A DNA stretch of 64,000 nucleotides from positions 1 through 64,000 of IMG/VR virus record IMGVR_UViG_3300043446_004967. One strand, 5' to 3'. The position numbers and the translations under genes were made by a program. The DNA comes from a virus. The notes under the pieces are model-generated. The model worked only from the letters and a program-made list of their open reading frames with translations. It had not been told where the DNA came from and searched no databases. Numbering within the stretch: position 1 is the first letter of the stretch; each line of letters starts with the position of its first letter. Below, in pieces: positions 18,485 to 57,327 of this stretch.

Positions 18485-19133
18485 ACGAACTGCCTAGCAC
18501 TTTTTCTGCTATCTGATGCGTTATCATATGTAGCCGGGACGCTTGCGCTTCTTCGGCTTTAATGCCGCGAAGCGTATCACGCACGTCTGCGGGAAACGAG
18601 GCGAAAGAGTCCCCTTCCGACGCTGAGACGCTGCCGCCAAGCCCTTTTATTTTTGCAAGCTTGTCCAGAAATTCCGCCGCCACAAGAAACTCTTTTGCCG
18701 TCGTCGGCAAAAGTTTGCGCATCGTGCGCTCATGAGCTACGTCTATGGATATGCGCTCCTTTTGCAGGCGATACAGTCGGTTTAACTCGGCTTCTACGTC
18801 TACGCCGGGGCGGTTCGCCTCCATGAGGGCATCCAGCGGCGCGTGAGTAGCGTCGGAGGTCAGCAGATGTATATTTTTCGCTCGAAAAGTATTTAACGCA
18901 GCCGAAAAGGTGCGCTCGGAAACGTCGAGCCAACCGTTAGTCGCAAACCATTTAGCGATGTCGGGGACGGACTGCCCTTCCCGCAAACTAAGGACAATCG
19001 CGGAATAGCGCGGGTTCCTCAGTACGATGTTGATCGCCGCCTGATCCTTTCTTTGCTTGTCCGCGTCAGCCGCGCTAGGCGGCGCCTTTTTAAGCGCGGG
19101 TCTTCCTAACGGACGAGAGCTTAGTTTTCGCAT
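18462..19133 (-). CDS. Putative terminase small subunit
   Basis: HTH-like N-terminal half plus helical segment; overlaps the large subunit start. Confidence 0.6.
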   Translation of the reverse strand: MRKLSSRPLGRPALKKAPPSAADADKQRKDQAAINIVLRNPRYSAIVLSLREGQSVPDIAKWFATNGWLDVSERTFSAALNTFRAKNIHLLTSDATHAPLDALMEANRPGVDVEAELNRLYRLQKERISIDVAHERTMRKLLPTTAKEFLVAAEFLDKLAKIKGLGGSVSASEGDSFASFPADVRDTLRGIKAEEAQASRLHMITHQIAEKVLGSSYDKKDDE

Positions 19134-19929
19134 TGCCCGGAACCTCGTTTGTTACCCACTGCTTCACTACGTCCGCCATAGCGCGCCCGTCTTCCGCGCA
19201 TTTCGCTTCAAGGGCCGCCAGCTTCTTTTCCGTTTCGCGGTCGATAGGGATGTAATGGTGCTTCTTGCCTTCAAAGGAGAAGACCAGAAACCCTTTTTCC
19301 ATATCCGTCCCGCCTTCCCGGAAAATTCCGTTTAACACGGCGGATAGATCGTCCACGGATTTAATAGTCTCTTTCGCGTCTTGCAGCTTCTTGCGCTGCG
19401 CCGGCGTCACTGACTTCTCGACGCTCGAGTACAGCTTTTTGAACGCCTGCTCTTTGGTGAATCCCATCTGCGCCTTGATAAGCGCCTCTTCCAGCCCCGC
19501 CCGCTTTAATTTGTCGTACAGGCGCACGAATTTTTCGGGATCCGTCGTACCTCGCAAATTATTCCGGGCCATTCCCTCGATGTCCCGTTTCGTCTCGTCC
19601 CAGTCATGGTGAATTATCGCCGGAAGCTTGGTGAACTTTAGCAGTTTCGCCGCTTTATACCGATGCTCTCCGCTGACCATCGTGTACCAGCCGGCCTTCT
19701 TGGGGTCCGGCGCGACATGCACGGGTTCGTCAAAACCGTCGGTCCTGATTTTTTCTACAAGAAGGTCGAACGTCTTGTCGTCCTGAACGTTAGGGTTCTC
19801 CTCCCATAAGGTAATTTTGTCGATAGGGATGTCGTACACCTTAACGGTGGAGGACATCGGCGCCGGAGGCGTCGCGGGCGCCTTATCCTTAGCGGAAAGC
19901 GCGGCGCGTCTTTTAAGTACGGGAGGCAT
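19090..19929 (-). CDS. ParB/Srx N-terminal domain protein
   Basis: IPIDKI..WEENPN, GFDEPVHV, VSGEHRYKAAK, LPAII. Confidence 0.85.
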   Translation of the reverse strand: MPPVLKRRAALSAKDKAPATPPAPMSSTVKVYDIPIDKITLWEENPNVQDDKTFDLLVEKIRTDGFDEPVHVAPDPKKAGWYTMVSGEHRYKAAKLLKFTKLPAIIHHDWDETKRDIEGMARNNLRGTTDPEKFVRLYDKLKRAGLEEALIKAQMGFTKEQAFKKLYSSVEKSVTPAQRKKLQDAKETIKSVDDLSAVLNGIFREGGTDMEKGFLVFSFEGKKHHYIPIDRETEKKLAALEAKCAEDGRAMADVVKQWVTNEVPGNAKTKLSSVRKTRA

Positions 19930-35698: not shown

Positions 35699-36511
35699 AT
35701 GCCGGTATATTTAAACGGCACGTTAATTGAAAAGCGGTATTATCCGTGCGGGGAGATCTCAGTGAGACTGGACGACCCCGCCCTTGCCTCACAGGGGAAT
35801 ACCCTGCGGGTCGACTATAAGGACTCTGATGACATCATTCAGATGCTGCTAGTCGCGGACGCAGTACGTAGAGTAGCCCCCGACAGGGCACTCTCTCTTG
35901 TCCTTCCGTACATCCCTTACGGCAGGCAGGATAGAGTCTGCCACCCTGGGGAACCTTTTTCGCTTAAAGTTTTGGCGGATATTATTAACGTCCAGAACTT
36001 TACCGCAGTGTACACGGTAGAACCGCATTCTGTGGCGTCGGCTAACTACATTCACCGCCTTTGCTCAGTAAGCGCGGCGACGTTAATCACCTACGAGGAT
36101 GGGAAAGGCGTGCGCGACCTGATACGGGAGGAAACCCCCGTGCTGCTCTCTCCCGATAAAGGCGGGAGGCAGCGGGTACTTGAGGTGGCGACCGCACTGG
36201 CCCAACACAATATCGTCTGTGCCGCCGCATACGCCGACAAGCGTAGGGAGGACGGGCAGGTAACGTTTACCCACGTGCCGGAAATTTGCGCCGGGAGAAA
36301 TATCTTGGTCATAGACGACATTTGCGACGGCGGGGCAACGTTCCTAAAGTTGGCGGACGCCTTACAAGAGCGCGGAGCGAGGGATCTTTACTTGTATGTG
36401 ACTCACGGATTTTTTACAAAAGGAACCGAGGAGTTACTTAAAAAATACAAAAAGATCTTTTATTACAAAGACTACCAACACATTGCCATATTGGAGCAAA
36501 AAAATGCGTAA
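35699..36511 (+). CDS. prs: PRPP synthetase homolog (likely NARP1 ADPR-PP synthetase)
   Basis: PYIPYGRQDR, EPHS, SPDKGG, K.R, VIDDICDGGATF, YVTHG. Confidence 0.9.
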   Translation: MPVYLNGTLIEKRYYPCGEISVRLDDPALASQGNTLRVDYKDSDDIIQMLLVADAVRRVAPDRALSLVLPYIPYGRQDRVCHPGEPFSLKVLADIINVQNFTAVYTVEPHSVASANYIHRLCSVSAATLITYEDGKGVRDLIREETPVLLSPDKGGRQRVLEVATALAQHNIVCAAAYADKRREDGQVTFTHVPEICAGRNILVIDDICDGGATFLKLADALQERGARDLYLYVTHGFFTKGTEELLKKYKKIFYYKDYQHIAILEQKNA

Positions 36512-38039
36512 CCCTATGTTTATTACCGACTTTTATAAGATCTCCCACCGAAACATGTACCCGCAAGGTACAGAGGAAGTGTACTCGAACTTGACCCCAA
36601 GGAGCGGTAAGCTCGCTAAGGGCGTTGCAGGCGGTCTGCCGTTCACCGACGGAGTATTTGTCTTCGGGACAGAAAACTTTATACGGGACTACCTTTTAGG
36701 AGAATGGGAGACGGGTTTTTTCCGGCGGCCTTTAGAGGAGGTTTTGGAGGAGTACGTCAGTCTGCTATCTGACACACTCAACGGACCTGTGGAGAGTTCG
36801 CACGTTGCGGAATTGCACGGCCTCGGCTATCTGCCGTTAGAAATTAAAGCGCTCCCCGAGGGCGCGTTCGTGCCGGTACAAGTTCCGATGGTGACGGTAC
36901 GCAACACGTTGCCAAAATTCTACTGGCTGACGAACTACATAGAAACGGCCATGTCCGTTTACTTGTGGAAACCTTCCACAATTGCCACCATCGCCGCAAA
37001 TTACCGCGCGGTTTTGCTCATGTACGGGGAACGCACGACCGCCGACACAAGCTACGTGGACTACCAAGCCCACGATTTTTCATTTCGGGGACTGACGTCT
37101 CTGCGCGACGCGGAGCTGACCGGCGCGGGGCACCTCACAGCGTTTAAGGGGTCTGACTGCGTACCCGCGTTCCAGTTCCTGCACCGGCTCTATGCCGCCC
37201 CCTACGGTGAACTGGGGGGTTCAGTTCCCGCCAGTGAGCACTCCGTTATGTGCGCGGGGGAAGAAGAAGGAGAGTTTGAAACCATCCGCCGGTTGGTTAC
37301 GGAAGTGCATCCGACAGGGACCGTCTCCATTGTCGCGGATACGTGGAATCTGTGGCGTGTGCTTACGGACTATTTGCCGCGTCTGAAAGACGTAATCTTA
37401 GCCAGAGAAGGTAAAGTAGTCATTCGTCCCGACAGCGGAGATCCTGTAAAAATCGTAACGGGAGACCCCGAGGCCGGAGGTGACGGGCCTTACGCGGACG
37501 CGGAGCGTAAAGGAGTGGTACGCGCTCTGTACGATATCTTCGGGGGAACCGTAAACCCGAAAGGCTACAAAGAGCTGGACCCGCATATCGGGGCCATTTA
37601 TGGCGATTCCATCACCGTTTCCCGGGCGCAGGAGATACTGAGCCGTTTAGAAAAAAACGGCTTTGCCGCAAACAATATATATTTTGGGGTCGGGTCGTAC
37701 TCTTACGGGCACATGACCCGAGACACGTTCGGTTTTGCGGTAAAAGCGACCTCCGTTACGATCAACGGAGAGCGGCGTGCCATCCAGAAAGATCCTGTCA
37801 CGGGGGACCGCGAAAAAAAATCCGCTCGGGGTTATCTTGTCGTGGCGTATGACACTCTCGCAGGAAGGTACGTGTTGAGTGACGGCAGACCGTCCCCGGA
37901 AGGCGGGTTTCTGGAGACCATTTTCCTCAACGGGAAGCGCGTCGGGCCCGAGGCCACGTCATCTACGTTCGCCACGATCAGAGCGCGGGTACAGGGTAAG
38001 GCGGCGGAATGGGCAACCCGGTATACGCAGGGGATGTAA
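36504..38039 (+). CDS. nadV: Nicotinamide phosphoribosyltransferase homolog (likely NARP1 nicotinamide ADPR-transferase)
   Basis: TDFYKISH..MYP, HDFSFRG, PASEHSVM, SIVADTW, IRPDSGDP, IYGDSI, TRDTFGFAVKAT, KKSARG. Confidence 0.93.
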   Translation: MRNPMFITDFYKISHRNMYPQGTEEVYSNLTPRSGKLAKGVAGGLPFTDGVFVFGTENFIRDYLLGEWETGFFRRPLEEVLEEYVSLLSDTLNGPVESSHVAELHGLGYLPLEIKALPEGAFVPVQVPMVTVRNTLPKFYWLTNYIETAMSVYLWKPSTIATIAANYRAVLLMYGERTTADTSYVDYQAHDFSFRGLTSLRDAELTGAGHLTAFKGSDCVPAFQFLHRLYAAPYGELGGSVPASEHSVMCAGEEEGEFETIRRLVTEVHPTGTVSIVADTWNLWRVLTDYLPRLKDVILAREGKVVIRPDSGDPVKIVTGDPEAGGDGPYADAERKGVVRALYDIFGGTVNPKGYKELDPHIGAIYGDSITVSRAQEILSRLEKNGFAANNIYFGVGSYSYGHMTRDTFGFAVKATSVTINGERRAIQKDPVTGDREKKSARGYLVVAYDTLAGRYVLSDGRPSPEGGFLETIFLNGKRVGPEATSSTFATIRARVQGKAAEWATRYTQGM

Positions 38040-44473: not shown

Positions 44474-45379
44474 ATGCTAATTAAAAACAGGACGGATATC
44501 CCGGTTCCCGAGGAGTTTCTTAGGGGATTTGAGGTGCCGGATGGGCTTTGCGGGCAAGATTTGGCCGAGGAAATAAATAAAAAGGTTGACCTAGACTGGA
44601 GGTTTCTGGACCTGACCGACGCGAATTTGAGCGGCGCGAATTTGAGCGGCGTGGATTTGACCCGCGCGAAACTGATCTACGCGGATTTGACCGACGCGGT
44701 TTTGAGCGGCGCGAATTTGACCGACGCGAAAATGATCTACGCGAAACTGAACGACGCGGATTTGACCCGCGCGGACCTGACCGGCGCGAAACTGATCGAC
44801 GCGGTTTTGACCGACGCGAATTTGACCGACGCGGATTTGACCGGCGCGATACTGATCGACGCGAAAATGACCGGCGCGAAACTGATCGGCGCGGACCTGA
44901 CCGACGCGGTTTTGACCGGCACGGATTTGACCGGCGTGGATTTGAGCGACGCGGATTTGACCGGCGCGGTTTTGACCGGCGCGAACCTGAACCGCGCGAA
45001 CCTGACCGGCGTGGATTTGACCTATGCGGATTTGAGCTACGCGGACCTGATCGGCGTGGATTTGAGCGGCACGGATTTGAGCGGCGCGAAATATCTTGCG
45101 ACCGCAAAACACGATCGGATCATTAAAATCGATTTCCCAAATGCAAATAATTGGGCCGTCGGTGTTTTTGTCTCGTACTGCGGTAAAAAAGATATCTTAG
45201 CAATAGGGTGCAAAAGCTTTTTATTGAGTAAATGGGAGGAAATGGCGGAACATGAAATAGATGAACTCCATGATGATGCGTCAATGTTTTGGAAGAAAAA
45301 CAAAGAAGCAATTTTGGCGGAAGCCAAGAAAGCAATTAATGAATTTAGAGAAAAGGAGACAAAAAATGACCGTCCGTAG
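44474..45379 (+). CDS. Pentapeptide repeat protein
   Basis: About 30 tandem A(D/N/K/V)Lxx repeats; C-terminal IGC..F...W domain. Confidence 0.95.
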   Translation: MLIKNRTDIPVPEEFLRGFEVPDGLCGQDLAEEINKKVDLDWRFLDLTDANLSGANLSGVDLTRAKLIYADLTDAVLSGANLTDAKMIYAKLNDADLTRADLTGAKLIDAVLTDANLTDADLTGAILIDAKMTGAKLIGADLTDAVLTGTDLTGVDLSDADLTGAVLTGANLNRANLTGVDLTYADLSYADLIGVDLSGTDLSGAKYLATAKHDRIIKIDFPNANNWAVGVFVSYCGKKDILAIGCKSFLLSKWEEMAEHEIDELHDDASMFWKKNKEAILAEAKKAINEFREKETKNDRP

Positions 45380-48618: not shown

Positions 48619-48670
48619 TTTGTAGCCATTTTTAGGTGAAAAATCCCGTGCGGGCGGCCTAATTATAGAC

Positions 48671-48810
48671 CAAAAATCGCCAAAAATCGCCAAAAATCGC
48701 CAAAAATCGCCAAAAATCGCCAAAAATCGCCAAAAATCGCCAAAAATCACCAAAAATCACCAAAAATCGCCAAAAATCGCCAAAAATCACCAAAAATCGC
48801 CAAAAATCGC
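48671..48810. repeat. 14 x 10-bp tandem repeat CAAAAATC(G/A)C
   Basis: 11 copies of CAAAAATCGC and 3 of CAAAAATCAC. Confidence 0.98.
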
Positions 48811-49012
48811 CAAAAAAAACCCGTTTTCAAAAATTTTACCCAAAATTTTTAGAGGGTTAGCAGCGTAGGGGCCCCTCTCGGCCTTCCCGGTTTTTTGGGA
48901 GGAGGGGAGGGGATAGATTTGTAATTATAAAAACGTATCTGCTACTTGATAGCCATAATTCCATAGATTTAATTGTATTGGGCACAAAAAAAGGCGCCGA
49001 AGCGCCGATTTT

Positions 49013-49426
49013 TTATGATTTTTTCCGGGCGTAGGCCACCCTGCTGGTGAAGCCCGGCGGCAACACCACGGAAACGCGGGCGCCTTCCACGCCTTCCGCG
49101 TACTCCGCAAGGCGTGCCATAGCGTCAAGCACGGCGTTAGCGCTTTTATGCGCGTCGCCGGTATCTGCCGGAGCAAAACCCTTCGCGTCTAACACCGGTG
49201 TTTCTTTTGGTCCTTTGACAAGTTTTAATAAAGGCTTATCGCCTATGACTTCGCCCGGCCGCGCAATGCGAATTGCCGGAGCGAAGCGATTTTGTAACGC
49301 TTCCTTAGCGTTTTGTTTCGCTGTTTCCTTAATCTTTTCTTTTGAATTTGTCACAATGTCAAACACATGTACCGCCATAGCGGCAACTCCGCACGCTAGG
49401 GCGGTGATTATCACTTCGCTTATCAT
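49013..49426 (-). CDS. Hypothetical protein with N-terminal TM helix
   Basis: AAGGT RBS, hydrophobic N-terminus. Confidence 0.65.
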   Translation of the reverse strand: MISEVIITALACGVAAMAVHVFDIVTNSKEKIKETAKQNAKEALQNRFAPAIRIARPGEVIGDKPLLKLVKGPKETPVLDAKGFAPADTGDAHKSANAVLDAMARLAEYAEGVEGARVSVVLPPGFTSRVAYARKKS

Positions 49427-49451
49427 TTTATTTACCTTTTTTTAGTTGTTT

Positions 49452-49475
49452 GAGATGTTTCACGTGAAACATCTC
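49452..49475. promoter_or_regulatory. parS: Perfect parS consensus TGTTTCACGTGAAACA (49456-49471) within a 24-bp palindrome
   Basis: GAGA-TGTTTCACGTGAAACA-TCTC, intergenic. Confidence 0.75.
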
Positions 49476-49483
49476 TTTTTTTG

Positions 49484-50080
49484 TTAAACGGTTGCGGGCG
49501 CCCTCTTAGCGGCGGGCGCGCGCGGTCGGATGGGCTTTTTTGCTGCAACCGGCGCGGCCGGCTTAGGCGGTTGATATATTTTTAGTTCGTTTTGTGGGGA
49601 TTGCTCCCACGTTTTTACATCTTCGTTAAGCTCAAATGTTAACGCATGTTGCGTCAACATAAATCGTGCGCCCGGGTTTATCGCTTCGGACGGCGTGGCT
49701 TTTTCCGGCGTAATAAATTTATGATGTATTAAATAATTTAGCACGCCTGCATCTAGGCCGAACGCGCGCTCAACAATTTTACCATTTTTTAGCGTTACTT
49801 TAACTTCTCCGAAGCGCGGAAAGTACGCTTCGCCGAAGGCGTTCCGAAGAACGCTCAGCGCCGCTTGGTTGCGCGGCGTAAGCGTGGCGCCCGCGTGTTC
49901 CGCCGTGGCGTACTTTACCGGCGTTACGGTTCTGTTATTTTTCGAGGCGTGGGGGTTTGGCTTTGAAACTACCCCGGAATCGCCGGCGTAGCACGTCGGT
50001 ATGCACGGAAGGGCGTTCCCGTTCATTTTCGCTACGCAGGCGGCGCGCGTTAAGACTTCGCGCATATTGCTTCTTTTCAT
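49484..50080 (-). CDS. Hypothetical early protein
   Basis: Directly downstream of promoter copy 1. Confidence 0.7.
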   Translation of the reverse strand: MKRSNMREVLTRAACVAKMNGNALPCIPTCYAGDSGVVSKPNPHASKNNRTVTPVKYATAEHAGATLTPRNQAALSVLRNAFGEAYFPRFGEVKVTLKNGKIVERAFGLDAGVLNYLIHHKFITPEKATPSEAINPGARFMLTQHALTFELNEDVKTWEQSPQNELKIYQPPKPAAPVAAKKPIRPRAPAAKRAPATV

Positions 50081-50284
50081 TTTCTTAGCTCTTTGGTTTG
50101 TGCTTTTCTGGTAACCCGAATATATTCCCCTCTTCGTCTCTTGTCAAGAGACAAAATGCGCTAGCGTGTCGTATTATATTGTATTGTATTGTGTCGCCCG
50201 CGCCCTGCATTTTGTCTCTTGACAAGAGACGCGCCGGCGTGTATTGTAGGGGAGTCAAACGAAACAAACAAAGGAGAATTTAAA

Positions 50285-50458
50285 ATGATGATAAACCAAG
50301 AGATTATTAACTCACTCGCCGCATGCGTGCAAGAATTGCACGCGGCAGGCGCCCGCGCGGCATATGATAGTATGCTAAAAATATATGAAGAAGCGTGTCG
50401 CCGGTACGCGGCGGGCGAGCCGGCCAGTGCCGACATGCTGGCGATTTTGGAAGCATAA
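50285..50458 (+). CDS. Small hypothetical protein
   Basis: AAGGAG RBS behind the divergent promoter copy. Confidence 0.65.
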   Translation: MMINQEIINSLAACVQELHAAGARAAYDSMLKIYEEACRRYAAGEPASADMLAILEA

Positions 50459-50494
50459 AACAAATCTTTTTTGCAAGAAATTGCAGAAAAGGGC

Positions 50495-50523
50495 TTGACC
50501 ACCGTTCCCGTCTCCGGTATAAC
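50495..50523 (+). promoter_or_regulatory. sigma70 promoter without an obvious downstream gene
   Basis: TTGACC-N17-TATAAC. Confidence 0.55.
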
Positions 50524-50867
50524 TTAGATATCAGAGACGGGAAACGGAGAGAAAAAACAAAAACCGAAAAAAAACAGGCTGACACCCGGGAAGGGCGGGG
50601 GGTAAAATAAAAATACCAAAAAAGGCGGAAGCTCGGGCTTCTCGGACAGGCTCGACGATAATCACAAACTTATGGGAAAATGGGGACGGTCGGCTCGCCC
50701 TTAGTCCGGACCTGCCAAGGGGGTACTCCGCCCGGCGCAGCAGGGGTGGGGGCTACTATACTACTAGCCGAAGCGCCGTCTACTATTTACTATTTACTAT
50801 CTACTACTAGAAAAAGTCCCGTTTACTATCCGAAACCACAATTTACTATACTATTAGGGGAATTAAT

Positions 50868-50892
50868 AAAAGAAAAGGCCCGTTATGGGCCT
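50868..50892 (-). terminator. Rho-independent terminator
   Basis: AGGCCC/GGGCCT stem plus T-tract after the stop at 50898. Confidence 0.7.
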
Positions 50893-50897
50893 ACTCC

Positions 50898-51434
50898 TTA
50901 ATCCGTTTGCGTTACAATGTCCAGAATCTTTAACACTTGGGCTTGCGTTAATTTCCGCAATTCTAATGCACATCCAGTGTCCGGCGTGCCGGCGTATCCT
51001 TTAATAGTAATCTCCCTATCCTTACCCCCACGGGCGATAAATTCCCTCCCGACGGCCTCTAGGCCATACCGTGAGGCAATATCTGCCGCTATTGTGCGGA
51101 GGTATTCCGCCCTCTTTTGCTCTTCCTCATTTTTCTTTTTGGCGGCAATAAATGCCTCCGTGTATCCGTCTAATAGACGGCGTTTTAACTCCCGGGCAAT
51201 TTGTGCCGAGGGTTTTGTTGAAGATATATTTATACTCTTATTATCTCTTAGTATATGTGAAATCGTAGACTCAAATATTATATGTCGCCCTCTGTCGCAC
51301 GCTTCAACAATCGCGCCCTCCGCGTTCTTTATATAAAAAAGATACGCGCTCTTTGTATTTTTTTCATCTATCTCCCATCCGTCGGGAGACAATCGGTTTA
51401 AGTCTTCACATACTGATCGCAACAAAGCTCTCAT
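50898..51434 (-). CDS. Hypothetical early protein (paralog of 52599-53264)
   Basis: Own promoter and RBS; SINISSTKPSAQIARELKRRLL. Confidence 0.75.
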   Translation of the reverse strand: MRALLRSVCEDLNRLSPDGWEIDEKNTKSAYLFYIKNAEGAIVEACDRGRHIIFESTISHILRDNKSINISSTKPSAQIARELKRRLLDGYTEAFIAAKKKNEEEQKRAEYLRTIAADIASRYGLEAVGREFIARGGKDREITIKGYAGTPDTGCALELRKLTQAQVLKILDIVTQTD

Positions 51435-51592
51435 TGTCTTATCCCCTTTTTTTTCTGATACCTCGAATATATTCCCTTTTTCGTCTCTTGTCAAGAGACA
51501 AAAATGGGGAATCTTGCAAAAAATTGCAGGAGTAAACTACTACAATAGGCTATAATAGGGCACAAATTACTATACTATCCATACACATGCTA

Positions 51593-51618
51593 AAAGAAAA
51601 GGCGCGTTAAGCGCCTTT
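51593..51618 (-). terminator. Rho-independent terminator
   Basis: AAAGGCGC/GCGCCTTT stem plus T-tract. Confidence 0.7.
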
Positions 51619-51621
51619 CCC

Positions 51622-52179
51622 TTAATCCCGGAAAATCATCTCGTATCCGGGCGTTGGCTCGTTAGCTTCCTCTACCAAGCTAAACCCGTTATCAAACACG
51701 GCCCGAAACACTGGTTTATAAGCTATTCCCGGGTAATAACTGACGTACCCTGTATGTTCTACCCGAATGACGTGCAGAAAAGTGTTACCTTTTTTGTCAA
51801 AGATTTTATCCCCCACGCGAAAGCGTGGTTGCATCCGCTCAAGTAATAACATACTCCGGGCTAACGCGTGAAATTTTGTCCCTGTTTGTACAATACGTGC
51901 GTCTCGCTCGCTGCATTTAAGTACATGTTGCTGTATCTCGTAAACAGCGCGTTGACACTCTCCCACAGTAGCGGAAGCTACTTTAGCCATTTTCCCTATG
52001 ACAGGCTCGAAGGCGATAGCGATAAACCTATCAACGCGCCACCAAAGGCGCTTTGCTTCTTCGTATTCTTCCGCATGGGTATCTTCCGTGCGAAAAAGAT
52101 GCTCCATCATTAATAATCCTTCCAAAAAAGGAGAAAGTGTCTGAAGCTCTCGTTTTATTTTTTCTCTATTGTTAGTCAT
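51622..52179 (-). CDS. Hypothetical early protein
   Basis: Own promoter, AAGGAG RBS. Confidence 0.75.
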   Translation of the reverse strand: MTNNREKIKRELQTLSPFLEGLLMMEHLFRTEDTHAEEYEEAKRLWWRVDRFIAIAFEPVIGKMAKVASATVGECQRAVYEIQQHVLKCSERDARIVQTGTKFHALARSMLLLERMQPRFRVGDKIFDKKGNTFLHVIRVEHTGYVSYYPGIAYKPVFRAVFDNGFSLVEEANEPTPGYEMIFRD

Positions 52180-52598
52180 TGTCTTATCTCCTTTTTCTTT
52201 CGATACCCCGAATATATTCCCTATTTCGTCTCTTGTCAAGGGACAAAATAGGGAATCTTGCAAAAAATTGCAGGAGTAAATTACTACAAAGCACTACACT
52301 ATACCGCCCGCCAACCACGTTAAATTTACTATACTATTCGTCACTTACGTTACTAGCCGACACTATGGCTATGTATAATTTACTATACTATCCTGCCGAT
52401 TACTATACAAAAATCTACTATAAAGTAACTCAATAAACCGCCTACTATTTACTATCTACTATTCCCGTTTACTATTTACTATCTACTATTTGCTAGCTAA
52501 ACCTACTATACTATTAGCCAAGCCGAAAAGAGCCAAGGAAGGCCAAGGAGCGCGTCCCCTAGCCTTCCGCTACCCGTGTAGCCTGTAGCCCCTGCGGG

Positions 52599-53264
52599 CT
52601 ACGCTACGAGCCTAATATTGGCCTTAGCGGCGGCTTCCAACCTGCCCGCTCGTAAAAATTGTAACACTGCCGTCGATTCCTCAACAGTTAAGTCTGTTAG
52701 GGTTAAACTCACCTCCGCAGGGGAATCCTTATCCGCGTTAACCTCAATAGTTGCAGGTACTCCCGGGATAAAAGCCCTGCGTTCCGGGGAAGGCTTGTAC
52801 CGGCAGTCCACCGCATAAGTATGAATCTTTTTCGTATAGCTATTTACGGGGTTCCCCGTTAGCGCGGTAAACTTGGCGTAAGCCTCGTTCACAACTTGCT
52901 CCCGCCGCGCGTTAGCGTCGCAGCTGGCTTTAGCTTGTTTAAACCAAGCTAAATATTCCGGTAATAACCGGCGGGAAATTTCCGACGCTACCGCCTTAGC
53001 GTCGCGATCATACCCCACGTTAATGCTTTTCGTAGGGTTGCCACCCAAATAATCTTTTGGGACACATCCGGATATCCGCCAAGGCTTCCCGAAGCGGTAT
53101 GAAATAAATAGTTCCGCCCCTTCGGGACTAATCAACGTCCCCCGTAAAAGCCAGTCCACAAACGGCGTTTCACCCGGCCTCCAGCCGGACCCCAAAGCGT
53201 TGCAAACATTCTGTAATTTTGTTTTAAACTCGCAAAACGTCTCTGCGTCGAAAGAGTCTTTCAT
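52599..53264 (-). CDS. Hypothetical early protein (paralog of 50898-51434)
   Basis: Own promoter; SINVGYDRDAKAVASEISRRLL. Confidence 0.75.
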   Translation of the reverse strand: MKDSFDAETFCEFKTKLQNVCNALGSGWRPGETPFVDWLLRGTLISPEGAELFISYRFGKPWRISGCVPKDYLGGNPTKSINVGYDRDAKAVASEISRRLLPEYLAWFKQAKASCDANARREQVVNEAYAKFTALTGNPVNSYTKKIHTYAVDCRYKPSPERRAFIPGVPATIEVNADKDSPAEVSLTLTDLTVEESTAVLQFLRAGRLEAAAKANIRLVA

Positions 53265-53338
53265 GCCGGTCTCTCCTTTGTTTGTCTGGTAATCCGAATA
53301 TATCCCTTTTAGTGTCTCTTGTCAAGGGACACTTTGCC

Positions 53339-53818
53339 CTATTTATACCAATAATACCCGCAGTCTACGTCCGCGTCCACGACATCAGGTGCTCCCTCCG
53401 CTCCGGCGGCTTTTGCCGTCAATAGCTCATTCGCAAGGCGCACCAATTCAGCGCGGTGACTCGCCGCCTCTGCGTGTGCCCCCCACCATAGACCTAACTT
53501 CTCCAGTTCTGCGGGCAGAACGGCCACGTAAGGGCGGATAAGCTGGAAGAACATCCAACTAAGGGTGCCACGCGCATCGCCTACGGCGCGGCTAAATGCT
53601 ACTTCAAAAGCCCACGAGATTGTCGGCATCCCAAAGCTTTTTACGTAAAAACGGTCTAAGACCCCCTCAAGCAGGGGCAGGCACGCCTTAACCATTTGGG
53701 CTATGCCGTACTCTTTCTTTACGGCAGGCGGTAAGATTCGCATTGCCAATATGCAGTGCGCGTGCAGAATAGCGCAATTCCGCGCCATATCATGGAAATT
53801 GTCCCGAAAATCCGTCAT
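53339..53818 (-). CDS. Hypothetical protein
   Basis: ORF with AAGGG RBS. Confidence 0.65.
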   Translation of the reverse strand: MTDFRDNFHDMARNCAILHAHCILAMRILPPAVKKEYGIAQMVKACLPLLEGVLDRFYVKSFGMPTISWAFEVAFSRAVGDARGTLSWMFFQLIRPYVAVLPAELEKLGLWWGAHAEAASHRAELVRLANELLTAKAAGAEGAPDVVDADVDCGYYWYK

Positions 53819-53904
53819 AAAATAACTTACCCTTTTATTAGTATTGTCACAAAGGTTCCCCCCGGAAAAATAATTTTCGAGGGAATCAAGTTAGTTTCCC
53901 GCAA

Positions 53905-54357
53905 TTATTTGCAGTAAGCGGGGAGCCGCCCGTTAATCGGGCGATACGCGTGAATTAGTTGATAAAAGAAGTCATCTTCCGCGAGGTCGAAAACCCCCCG
54001 CAGATGAGACGGGGTTTGCGCCGGATAAGGCGCGTCGTTAATTAACCGCGCCGAACGATACGGCCTAACCTTTCTACGCCCCGCCACCGGCACGAGGCCG
54101 ATACGTACAGCTTCGCCGGTGAGGCTGACGCCATACCCGGCCGCCCGAATAACCTCCGCCTCCCTGCGGAAAATTTCCCGCACGATACGCGCGGGCCTTA
54201 GGGCAGGAGAACGCCCCGTTAACTCAAGATAGATACTTCCCCATACGGGGAGGCGAGCCTCCACCGCCGAAAGTCTAAAGGTGCGCTGCCGATTCAAGCA
54301 GCGCAGATATTCCCAATAGGATTTCTCCTTCTTTTCATTATCAGATGATAAAGACAT
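53905..54357 (-). CDS. Hypothetical early protein
   Basis: Own promoter, GGGAG RBS. Confidence 0.7.
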   Translation of the reverse strand: MSLSSDNEKKEKSYWEYLRCLNRQRTFRLSAVEARLPVWGSIYLELTGRSPALRPARIVREIFRREAEVIRAAGYGVSLTGEAVRIGLVPVAGRRKVRPYRSARLINDAPYPAQTPSHLRGVFDLAEDDFFYQLIHAYRPINGRLPAYCK

Positions 54358-54543
54358 TTTATCTCCCTTTTTTCTGATAACCCGAATATATTCCCTTTTT
54401 CGTCTCTTGTCAAGAGACAATTAGCCTACCGGAACCAGTAGGCGAGACTACCCTCTTTCTTACGTAAGGTTGTTACAGACGTCCCCCCCCCCGGAAAAAT
54501 AATTTTCGAGGGAATAAGGTGCGCGCTGCAATTATTGCAGAGC

Positions 54544-54939
54544 TTACCCAATATACTCCCACCCCAGCCAAAAATGGGCGCAGTCATCCGCTAGCGGACT
54601 CTCGGAATAATTCAACTTGATTCCGCACGCCTTAAACAGCGCCCGACGTCGGGCGTGCAAGGTGTAGTGTGACTCCGGGTATATGATCACAATGTCATGA
54701 TATGCCGGGGCGCAGTCGTCACGGTGGCACTGCGCCACCTTTGCCGTTAAGTGAAAAATAGTTACAGGGGCCTCCTGTAACGAGTCCGTGAAGTCAAATT
54801 TGACTTCAATCCTAGGGACCAGCGAACCCGCTTGGCCCACGCTGCCGAAAGAGAGCGTGGCCGCACGCCCCCCAAAAACGGGAGTTAGGCGAAGATGCTC
54901 CTCGCCAAAAATAAACCGCCCTGCGTCGATCCCCGGCAT
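54544..54939 (-). CDS. Hypothetical early protein
   Basis: Own promoter, AGGT RBS. Confidence 0.65.
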   Translation of the reverse strand: MPGIDAGRFIFGEEHLRLTPVFGGRAATLSFGSVGQAGSLVPRIEVKFDFTDSLQEAPVTIFHLTAKVAQCHRDDCAPAYHDIVIIYPESHYTLHARRRALFKACGIKLNYSESPLADDCAHFWLGWEYIG

Positions 54940-56585
54940 ATTGTACCTACCTGCTAATGTTTGTTTGTCTGGTAACCCGAATCTACCTTTTATCGTGTCT
55001 CCCGTCAAGAGACAAAATAAAAAACCCTCAAAAAAAATGCGGGCGAAGAAACGCGAAGGGTATACTCATAGTAAGTCAGTGATAGTTGGACCCCGGAAAA
55101 ATAATTTCCGCCGAAACGGCCGCCCCCGGATAAATAATTTCTACTATACTATCGTACAATACCACGTAATAAAATACCCGCCGACCCGCCGCAAGTTCTT
55201 GCAATATAACCTGCTATAAGACACCTTCGCATCCCGCAATGTAATTTACTATACTACCCCATAATGGGCGACAACCGCCCCTAACCCGATTTACTATCTA
55301 CTATCCGTAAAACCAATTTACTATCTACTATTTGAAAATCCCGTCTACTATTTGGAAATAAAATACCGTCTACTATCACGCAATCCAATTTACTATCTAC
55401 TATTTGGGGCCGCAAATTCTTGCAGAAAATAGGGAAAAAGGGCTGCAATAACTTGCAAAAAATGCTTAGATAAAGGCCCGGCTAAGGTAAGATTGGCCTT
55501 TCTGCAAGAAATTGCAGGCACAAAAAAGGGCAAAAAAAGGGGCAAAACAGAGCTGCAATAACTTGCAAAAAATAGGAAAAGCGGGCAAGATGAGGCTCTG
55601 CAAATTCTTGCAGGACCGCAAAACAAGGCAAAAAGGGCCGCAATTTCTTGCAGAAAAGGGCCGCAATAACTTGCAAAAAATACCCAAAACAGCCCTTTTG
55701 ATGACCTTCTCCCCGATAGGAGAATCCGCTAAACCCCCTTTTGATGACCTCCGCTCCGATAGGCGAAAACGCCCCGGTACCCCCAAAACAGGCGAAAACA
55801 GGCCCAAAAGTGCCAAAACTAGGGCAGATTGAGCGAATCTGCTATGGTTTTGGGTCGGATTTGGGTCGAATTTACCCCCGATTTACCCCGAATATTCCGT
55901 CTAAAGATAACTTCTCTCTTAGTAGGTATCTTGGGTATCTTGGTTGTAGTTGGACCCCGGAAAAATAATTTTCGTTTTGTTGGCCCGGAAAAATTGCCGT
56001 TTATTGCCGTTTATTGCCGTTTATTGCATGTTATTGCAAGAACGCGCAGGGGATCCAAAAGGGATTGAGAAGGTATTGAGGGAGAGGGGTATAGGTAACG
56101 TAGGGTATCTAGGGGAAGTGTGGCCCCGGAAAAATAATTTCGTAAAAGAACCCCGCAATAATATGCAGTAGTAGGTAATAACGTGAAGTACGGGAGGAGG
56201 TAACGGACGGGTATAGGTAGGGGAAGTGTGGCCCCGGAAAAATTAAACGCAAAATATTGCGGATACAAAAAAGCCCCGACACCGATCGACGATACCGAGG
56301 CTTTCAAAATAACGGGAACCCGGCCCCCCTACCTCCCCTTAGGAAACGGAGGAAATTGCAAATCATGCAGACGCGACACTTTCGCGTCAACCCGCCTTAT
56401 CGCCCAAAAAAGCATTAACCAATTTAGAAAATTTAATAAATCGGCGTAATGGGTAAAGAACGCCGCTACGTCTTTTAATAAATCAGCCATGCTTTACAAG
56501 CCCTCAAAGTAAAAATGTAAAATATACACAGTAATGCTAATCAGCATTACCAAAATAACCCCTGCCTCCGGAGTCATTAAAAACA

Positions 56586-56870
56586 TTATAACAGCATCCC
56601 CCAAAAAAAGTCAAAGGCCACATGCCTTCGGTACATCGGACCCTTCTTTACCTCCGCCGTACCCTTGAAAAACGTGAGAAGCGGCGCCGCTTTGGTATCC
56701 TCCCCTAAATAAACCCGAGTCTCCGAGGACTCATCCATAATCGCCGCGACCCGTGTAAAATAGGGCACCGCCTCAGACACAAATGAGCCGCGCCTAAACA
56801 CAACGCCCGTATCATGAGCCTGTCCGTTACGGTCGTAGGTGCGCCACAGGTAAGAAATATACTCTCTCAT
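56586..56870 (-). CDS. Hypothetical protein
   Basis: ORF with RBS. Confidence 0.55.
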   Translation of the reverse strand: MREYISYLWRTYDRNGQAHDTGVVFRRGSFVSEAVPYFTRVAAIMDESSETRVYLGEDTKAAPLLTFFKGTAEVKKGPMYRRHVAFDFFWGMLL

Positions 56871-57327
56871 ATACCCGCCTTAGTCCCCAGAAGACGTTAT
56901 CACTAACGCGCCTAATACCAAAAACGGCACAAAAACAATCAAAATCTTTACCGTTTCCATAAAAAGCTACCCCTTCCATAAAATTTTAATAAACACACAT
57001 AGGAAACCTAAGAAAGGCAGCATTCTAACCTCTTTTATTGTTAAAAGATTAATTAAAAGACTAGGCAACCTCAGAGCACGTACCACACTGGCATAGGCCC
57101 TGCCCGTCAAAACGGAACTGGGCGAAACGCCCGCCTCTACACGGGCGCCCGCTGAGGTATACAGCACGGCAGCCTCTTTTTCGTCGGCTAATACCCCAAA
57201 ACTACACCTTTTAGTGTCGCTTGTCGAGGGACAAAACAACGCACCCCTAAAAGAAACTGTGGTCAATCTGCTACGGTTTTTTGCCGCGAGGGGTAGCGGC
57301 CACACACATACCCGCCAAGGTGGCCGC

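Follow-up and report, generated by a model that had tools for sequence, protein, structure and literature searches.

A consensus chromosomal parS site in the genome of an uncultured fresh-water phage

What would read a chromosomal parS site carried on phage DNA, and what might the phage gain from having it read? ParB dimers are loaded at parS sites, where they bind CTP and become closed clamps able to slide over several kilobases, and a site of this kind, identical to the chromosomal consensus, lies in the genome of an uncultured phage from a fresh-water metagenome. The stretch of DNA analysed here, called the window throughout, comprises positions 1 to 64,000 of the IMG/VR virus record IMGVR_UViG_3300043446_004967. 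The complete record is a virus genome of 110,897 bp whose ends overlap by 127 bp, indicating a circular assembly.

The palindrome and its genomic setting

The original prediction, made from the letters of the window, described a perfect parS inside a 24-bp intergenic palindrome of the phage early region. We find the palindrome at 49452-49475, as described, and its core (TGTTTCACGTGAAACA) agrees with the consensus (tGTTNCACGTGAAACa) at all of the positions compared (16/16). The site does fall between two genes, both of which are encoded on the minus strand. According to a literature search, studies of Caulobacter, Bacillus, Burkholderiales, Hyphomonas and others use exactly this 16-mer as their ParB site. 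The features of the locus, from left to right, are these:

48993-49006, either strand: GC-rich intrinsic terminator, bidirectional, at the end of the parS-containing unit
49013-49426, minus strand: 137-aa gene downstream of parS, for a membrane protein with an N-terminal hydrophobic helix
49452-49475, no strand: perfect 24-bp palindrome, made of the core plus 4 bp on each side (GAGA...TCTC)
49456-49471, no strand: 16-bp parS core, identical to the consensus chromosomal parS
49476-49482, plus strand only: run of seven T after the hairpin, which on the coding (minus) strand is an A-run before the hairpin
49484-50080, minus strand: 198-aa gene upstream of parS, ending 8 bp from the palindrome
50119-50152, minus strand: promoter TTGACA-17-TATATT, inside a 17-bp operator-like palindrome; it drives the parS-holding unit and is the last of eight cassette copies

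This is the only site in the 64-kb window with three or fewer mismatches to parS and the only one in the whole genome with at most one mismatch, where base composition leads one to expect 1.8e-5 copies per genome. The 24-bp palindrome is also the longest perfect palindrome of the genome, and 20 shuffles of the sequence gave 20 bp at most. The runner-up in the genome itself, a perfect palindrome of 20 bp at 54789-54808, lies in the early block too.

The genes around the site are arranged in three blocks. Minus-strand genes for the head, packaging and nucleotide metabolism (portal, capsid, RNR) occupy 1-31.3 kb, a plus-strand block with PRPP synthetase-like, NAMPT-like, PNKP-phosphatase-like and pentapeptide-repeat genes occupies 31.5-48.4 kb, and minus-strand genes resume from 48.4 kb on. 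Within the plus-strand arm, the PRPP-synthetase-like and NAMPT-like genes (both within 35699-38039) form an NAD salvage pair, and the pentapeptide-repeat protein (44474-45379) has 301 aa. The unit that holds parS belongs to the third block and reads, in minus-strand order, promoter, 198-aa gene, parS, 137-aa gene and terminator. Its promoter is of a strong sigma-70 type that recurs in eight copies over 50.1-57.2 kb, each copy standing before small genes. Throughout this array (50136-57232) the -35 box lies within a 17-bp palindrome, GTCTCTTGACAAGAGAC or close variants of it, and the palindromes at 50136 and 50214 make up a divergent pair. The 17-bp palindrome has the appearance of an operator common to a set of early cassettes with one gene each. 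We found no family match for the small genes behind the eight promoters, and we infer that this block is an early, host-takeover region; the placement of parS in an early region, as first proposed, is plausible given eight copies of one strong promoter-operator.

A plus-strand ORF at 49047-49445, which overlaps the 137-aa gene antisense, is taken here as a non-coding shadow frame, the minus-strand reading being supported over it by homologues of both the 198-aa and the 137-aa proteins. Seven metagenomic homologues of the 198-aa protein (P0002-P0008) share 52-63% identity with it. The longest contigs of the homologues of the two proteins have the same sizes (3,644, 4,845 and 90,171 bp), suggesting that the pair is probably syntenic in relatives. 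The family of both flanking genes was seen in metagenomic contigs only.

Between the plus-strand arm and the parS-holding unit, positions 48670-48816 consist of 14.7 tandem copies of a 10-bp unit, which places one A5/T5 tract on each helical turn. On the minus strand this array adjoins a TATAAT box and a small gene (~48626-48415) that matches phrog_1761/phrog_5120, and the assemblies of the source runs break exactly at it. In the source runs, a contig covering 48780-51493 has 1.6-2.3x the depth of the long contig that ends at 48699, and in both runs the k-mer depth of the contigs from 48780 to at least 52500 is ~1.2-2.5x that of the long contig next to them. The early block may be a collapsed long terminal repeat, T5-like, with the A-tract array as its left edge; if it is, each virion DNA would have two copies of parS, and the site would lie ~0.65 kb from one end. 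The contigs of the source sample carry no variants at the stretch. No RNA sequencing run containing the stretch is listed, the matches being two runs of the probable source sample.

Kinship of the phage and the distribution of parS

In its capsid protein the phage shares 44-46% identity with the Agrobacterium phage JP1, the Rhizobium phages RHph_I4 and L338C and the Rhodobacter phage RcTiptonus, and 42-44% with Vibrio, Stenotrophomonas and Aeromonas phages; the host is likely to be proteobacterial. We found no integrase or resolvase in the phage, which has replication genes of its own (a DnaB-like helicase, other helicases, a UvsX-like recombinase and RNR), and these observations together make a virulent lifestyle likely. 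The phage is probably a virulent siphophage of ~111 kb.

Closer relatives were found as metagenomic proteins only, namely the homologues of the flanking genes. An MCP scan gave no relative above 55% MCP identity, and neither the 24-mer in IMG/VR nor the 198-aa and 137-aa proteins in viral and metagenome contigs led to a close relative. Megablast of 20 kb against known phages returned no match, and tblastn of all phage ORFs against the 118 parS-bearing viral loci listed revealed no kin. A survey of related phages for parS had been suggested at the outset; L338C, RHph_I4, JP1, RcTiptonus, DLP5 and three IMG/VR relatives proved to have none. Its absence from these five cultured phages and three IMG/VR relatives indicates that the site is no trait of the wider lineage.

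We then searched for the motif among viruses at large, using as a control the reversed palindrome ACAAAGTGCACTTTGT, which has the same composition and symmetry as parS. At least 118 IMG/VR contigs (loci L003-L120) contain the parS motif and 2 the control, which amounts to an over-representation of at least 59-fold and leaves chance to account for at most ~2% of the viral parS hits. Both the composition expectation and the reversed control thus show parS to be more frequent than chance, in keeping with the original argument that a chance match was improbable. On its sequence, we consider 49456-49471 to be a true consensus parS and no chance match.

We looked more closely at the 31 IMG/VR records with a perfect parS and a length of at least 30 kb. 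A ParB_N protein is absent from 28 of them, and the same holds for 13 of the 15 surveyed records that are at least 90% complete. The control motif was found in none of the 31. A single site is present in 18, and two to six sites in the other 13. With ParB_N lacking in 28/31 large carriers, orphan parS sites of the host type recur among viral genomes. Some of the small viral contigs with three to five clustered parS sites may be plasmid-like or fragments of host DNA. Among unselected viral parS sites, A is favoured at flank positions -1 and -2, and palindromes extended by at least 4 bp make up 7 of 160 sites, about 10x the chance rate.

The identical 24-mer recurs across many bacterial phyla, with at least 120 genomes (GTDB, L129-L248) containing it, and is found in chromosomes of Alpha-, Beta- and Gammaproteobacteria, including fresh-water Proteobacteria. 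Spread over so many phyla, these matches give no clue to the host. A T-run stands on one side of 52 of 119 bacterial copies (44%), so chromosomal parS often has a terminator-like look, and the T-run beside the phage site is no evidence against parS. When the flanks of the phage site were compared with the 119 bacterial 24-mer loci in search of a donor, no similarity was found.

Candidate readers and competing explanations

No ParA-type ATPase was found in the phage, in agreement with the original prediction. One ParB-family candidate is encoded:

19090-19929, minus strand: ParB_N protein ('ParB-like nuclease'), the only one of the phage, ~30 kb from parS in the head and packaging arm

This protein aligns weakly with Noc/ParB (E ~1e-7), the alignment reaching part of the HTH region, and in it the GERR CTP-binding motif reads GEHR. 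The canonical ParB/Noc recognition-helix signature is absent from its HTH region. Orthologues at 30-48% identity are found in RcTiptonus (Rhodobacter), JP1 (Agrobacterium) and DLP5 (Stenotrophomonas), and the complete genomes of these three phages contain no parS with up to two mismatches, suggesting that the function of the ParB_N protein is not tied to parS. Given orthologues in parS-free phages and the missing recognition-helix signature, it is unlikely to be the parS reader, and the alignment supports the earlier remark that the phage ParB-like protein has no clear parS-reading HTH. The ParB_N protein is also conserved in related Arthrobacter phages. A self-encoded ParABS system would place a parA-parB operon next to parS; none adjoins it, and the neighbouring genes are without family match. 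The phage resembles phi29 in having no ParA of its own and, in all probability, no parS-reading ParB.

The 198-aa protein remains a minor candidate reader. It has no match in Pfam or PHROG, its AF2 model is of low confidence (pLDDT 41), for which a fold search was skipped, and an Atlas search gave weak winged-helix-like neighbours below the Atlas significance guide of 0.9. Throughout the family a basic, Pro-rich C-terminal tail, KKPIRPR, is invariant. This tail recalls minor-groove (AT-hook-like) binders. The A-tract array is 0.7 kb from the gene; to connect the two would be pure speculation.

With the phage's own candidates judged less likely and the match to the consensus exact, host chromosomal ParB becomes the likeliest reader. 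We assume that the host has a cognate ParB. After DNA entry this protein would find the 16-bp core, form a CTP-dependent clamp and spread over the neighbouring few kilobases, that is, over the early-gene block, and a partition-type nucleoprotein complex would form on the phage DNA. Through ParA, SMC or a polar anchor, the phage genome could then be coupled to host chromosome segregation, and phage DNA would be positioned, or inherited by daughter cells, when lysis is delayed, as in starved hosts or the carrier state. Once the phage has replicated, its many copies might titrate ParB as a second effect. We hold it somewhat more probable than its negation that the site is functional in this sense and that host ParB-CTP loads there. 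By analogy with phi29, coupling to segregation is the most likely benefit to the phage, and PopZ tethering, SMC loading and ParB titration are purely conjectural as outcomes.

Several observations count against a host-ParB site. There is a single site in one genome, the members of the wider lineage that were examined have no parS, and the depth hint that parS may lie ~0.65 kb from a DNA end bears on it as well, since sliding clamps could run off there. The single copy also fits a neutral passenger with no role in the phage, either a small host-derived fragment or a rare match by chance, as does the absence of parS from all of the distant relatives examined. We consider a passenger unlikely, however: its flanks are unlike those of the 119 bacterial loci with the same 24-mer, the family of the flanking genes is confined to metagenomic contigs, the control sets a low ceiling on chance among viral parS hits, and ParB loading on replicating phage DNA would hardly be neutral. 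The palindrome could also matter as a hairpin only, the parS match being incidental, and serve either as a plus-strand terminator against antisense read-through or as an intercistronic stem-loop in mRNA processing or stability. As RNA it would form a 10-bp stem of ~-15 kcal/mol, stable on either strand, the terminator scan lists it with its T7 tail, and the one-sided T-run is shared with the 52 bacterial copies counted above; hairpin and T-run allow a structural reading and to that extent weigh against host ParB. The original prediction had named a terminator as the alternative, and the T-run does follow the hairpin on the plus strand, but that strand is antisense to both flanking genes, which weakens the alternative. 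On the minus strand, to which both neighbours belong, an A7 run precedes the hairpin and an A-rich tract follows it, with no U-run, whereas a Rho-independent terminator closes a co-oriented unit and its stem-loop is followed by a U-run in the strand that is transcribed. Moreover, the interval from 48.4 to 49.45 kb yielded no plus-strand promoter, the plus side is already guarded by the bidirectional terminator at 48993-49006, which lies 450 bp from parS and is much the better of the two, Rfam gave no match of note at the site, and the centre of a 24-bp palindrome would spell parS with odds of only ~4^-8. A purely structural role is thus very unlikely.

The palindrome might otherwise be the operator of a phage protein, the 198-aa or the ParB_N protein, with its likeness to parS due to descent or convergence. 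The closeness of the 198-aa gene to the palindrome and the weak winged-helix-like neighbours of its product point in this direction, as do the alignment of the ParB_N protein with Noc/ParB into the HTH region and the fact that the phage already has another palindrome as a promoter operator. Yet that operator differs in sequence from the parS palindrome, and a private operator needs no exact 16/16 match to the host consensus. Orthologues of the ParB_N protein occur in phages without any parS, its recognition-helix region is unlike that of ParB or Noc, and for the 198-aa protein the model is unreliable and the Atlas scores fall short of the guide. We regard a private operator as improbable. A further proposal keeps host ParB as the reader and gives it another task: by analogy, clamps might slide over the ~8-kb block of eight operator-gated promoters and quieten the early genes in the manner of KorB/KorA, or, once the phage has replicated, the site might act as a sponge that draws ParB away from the host origin and arrests host segregation and division. 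This, too, we judge quite unlikely, and coupling to segregation through host ParB is the reading we prefer.

Relation to known partition systems

From a parS-like palindrome, a clamp of the ParB family such as KorB can travel to promoters where a partner protein sits on an operator of their own. Our locus is like the RK2 KorB-OB/KorA arrangement in having such a palindrome, a putative clamp site, beside operator-gated promoters, and the likeness is one of analogy only. Unlike RK2, the phage has no KorB or KorA homologue, and silencing is proposed here by analogy. With the chromosomal ParABS systems of Caulobacter, Bacillus and others the phage site shares the identical 16 bp and even the 24-bp form; chromosomal sites, however, cluster near oriC beside parAB, whereas the phage site is a lone one without parA or parB. 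Centromere-like sites on phage genomes are also found in P1 (ParAB-parS), N15 (SopAB) and the cluster A mycobacteriophages (parABS). These phages are temperate, encode ParA and ParB of their own and use private parS sequences, whereas the present phage lacks ParA, a canonical ParB, an integrase and a resolvase.

The closest precedent is the Bacillus phage phi29, which has five parS sites and whose genome is brought into the prespore by host Spo0J (Meijer et al. 2005, summarised in PMC2731898). The principle is therefore already known, and is less novel than the original prediction implied. Like phi29, our phage would be a virulent phage without partition proteins of its own that carries a host-consensus parS and, as proposed here, relies on a host ParB homologue. 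Phi29 is a protein-primed podophage with a 19-kb genome and a spore-forming host, and its five sites work together with Spo0A boxes. Ours, by contrast, is a ~111-kb siphophage with one site and with cultured kin on Alpha- and Gammaproteobacteria, its host is probably non-sporulating, and it is known from sequence alone. It adds an example from a phage of a very different sort. In the literature we found no natural host-type parS beyond the phi29 family or in a phage of a non-sporulating host, and papers on parS in phage DNA during infection, judging by their titles and abstracts, apparently concern an engineered label.

If host ParB loads at this site, 16 bp suffice to plug a phage into host chromosome segregation. 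The survey, with at least 118 contigs against 2 and 28/31 large carriers without ParB_N, suggests that the orphan parS trick is widespread and little studied. The example described here comes from a large phage, probably proteobacterial and virulent, in which spore entrapment cannot be the purpose. If promoter quietening or a ParB sponge were the true role, the site would amount to a means of host takeover by DNA alone, in a host that does not form spores. Coupling to segregation, if true, would be relevant to the persistence of lytic phages in slow-growing fresh-water hosts.
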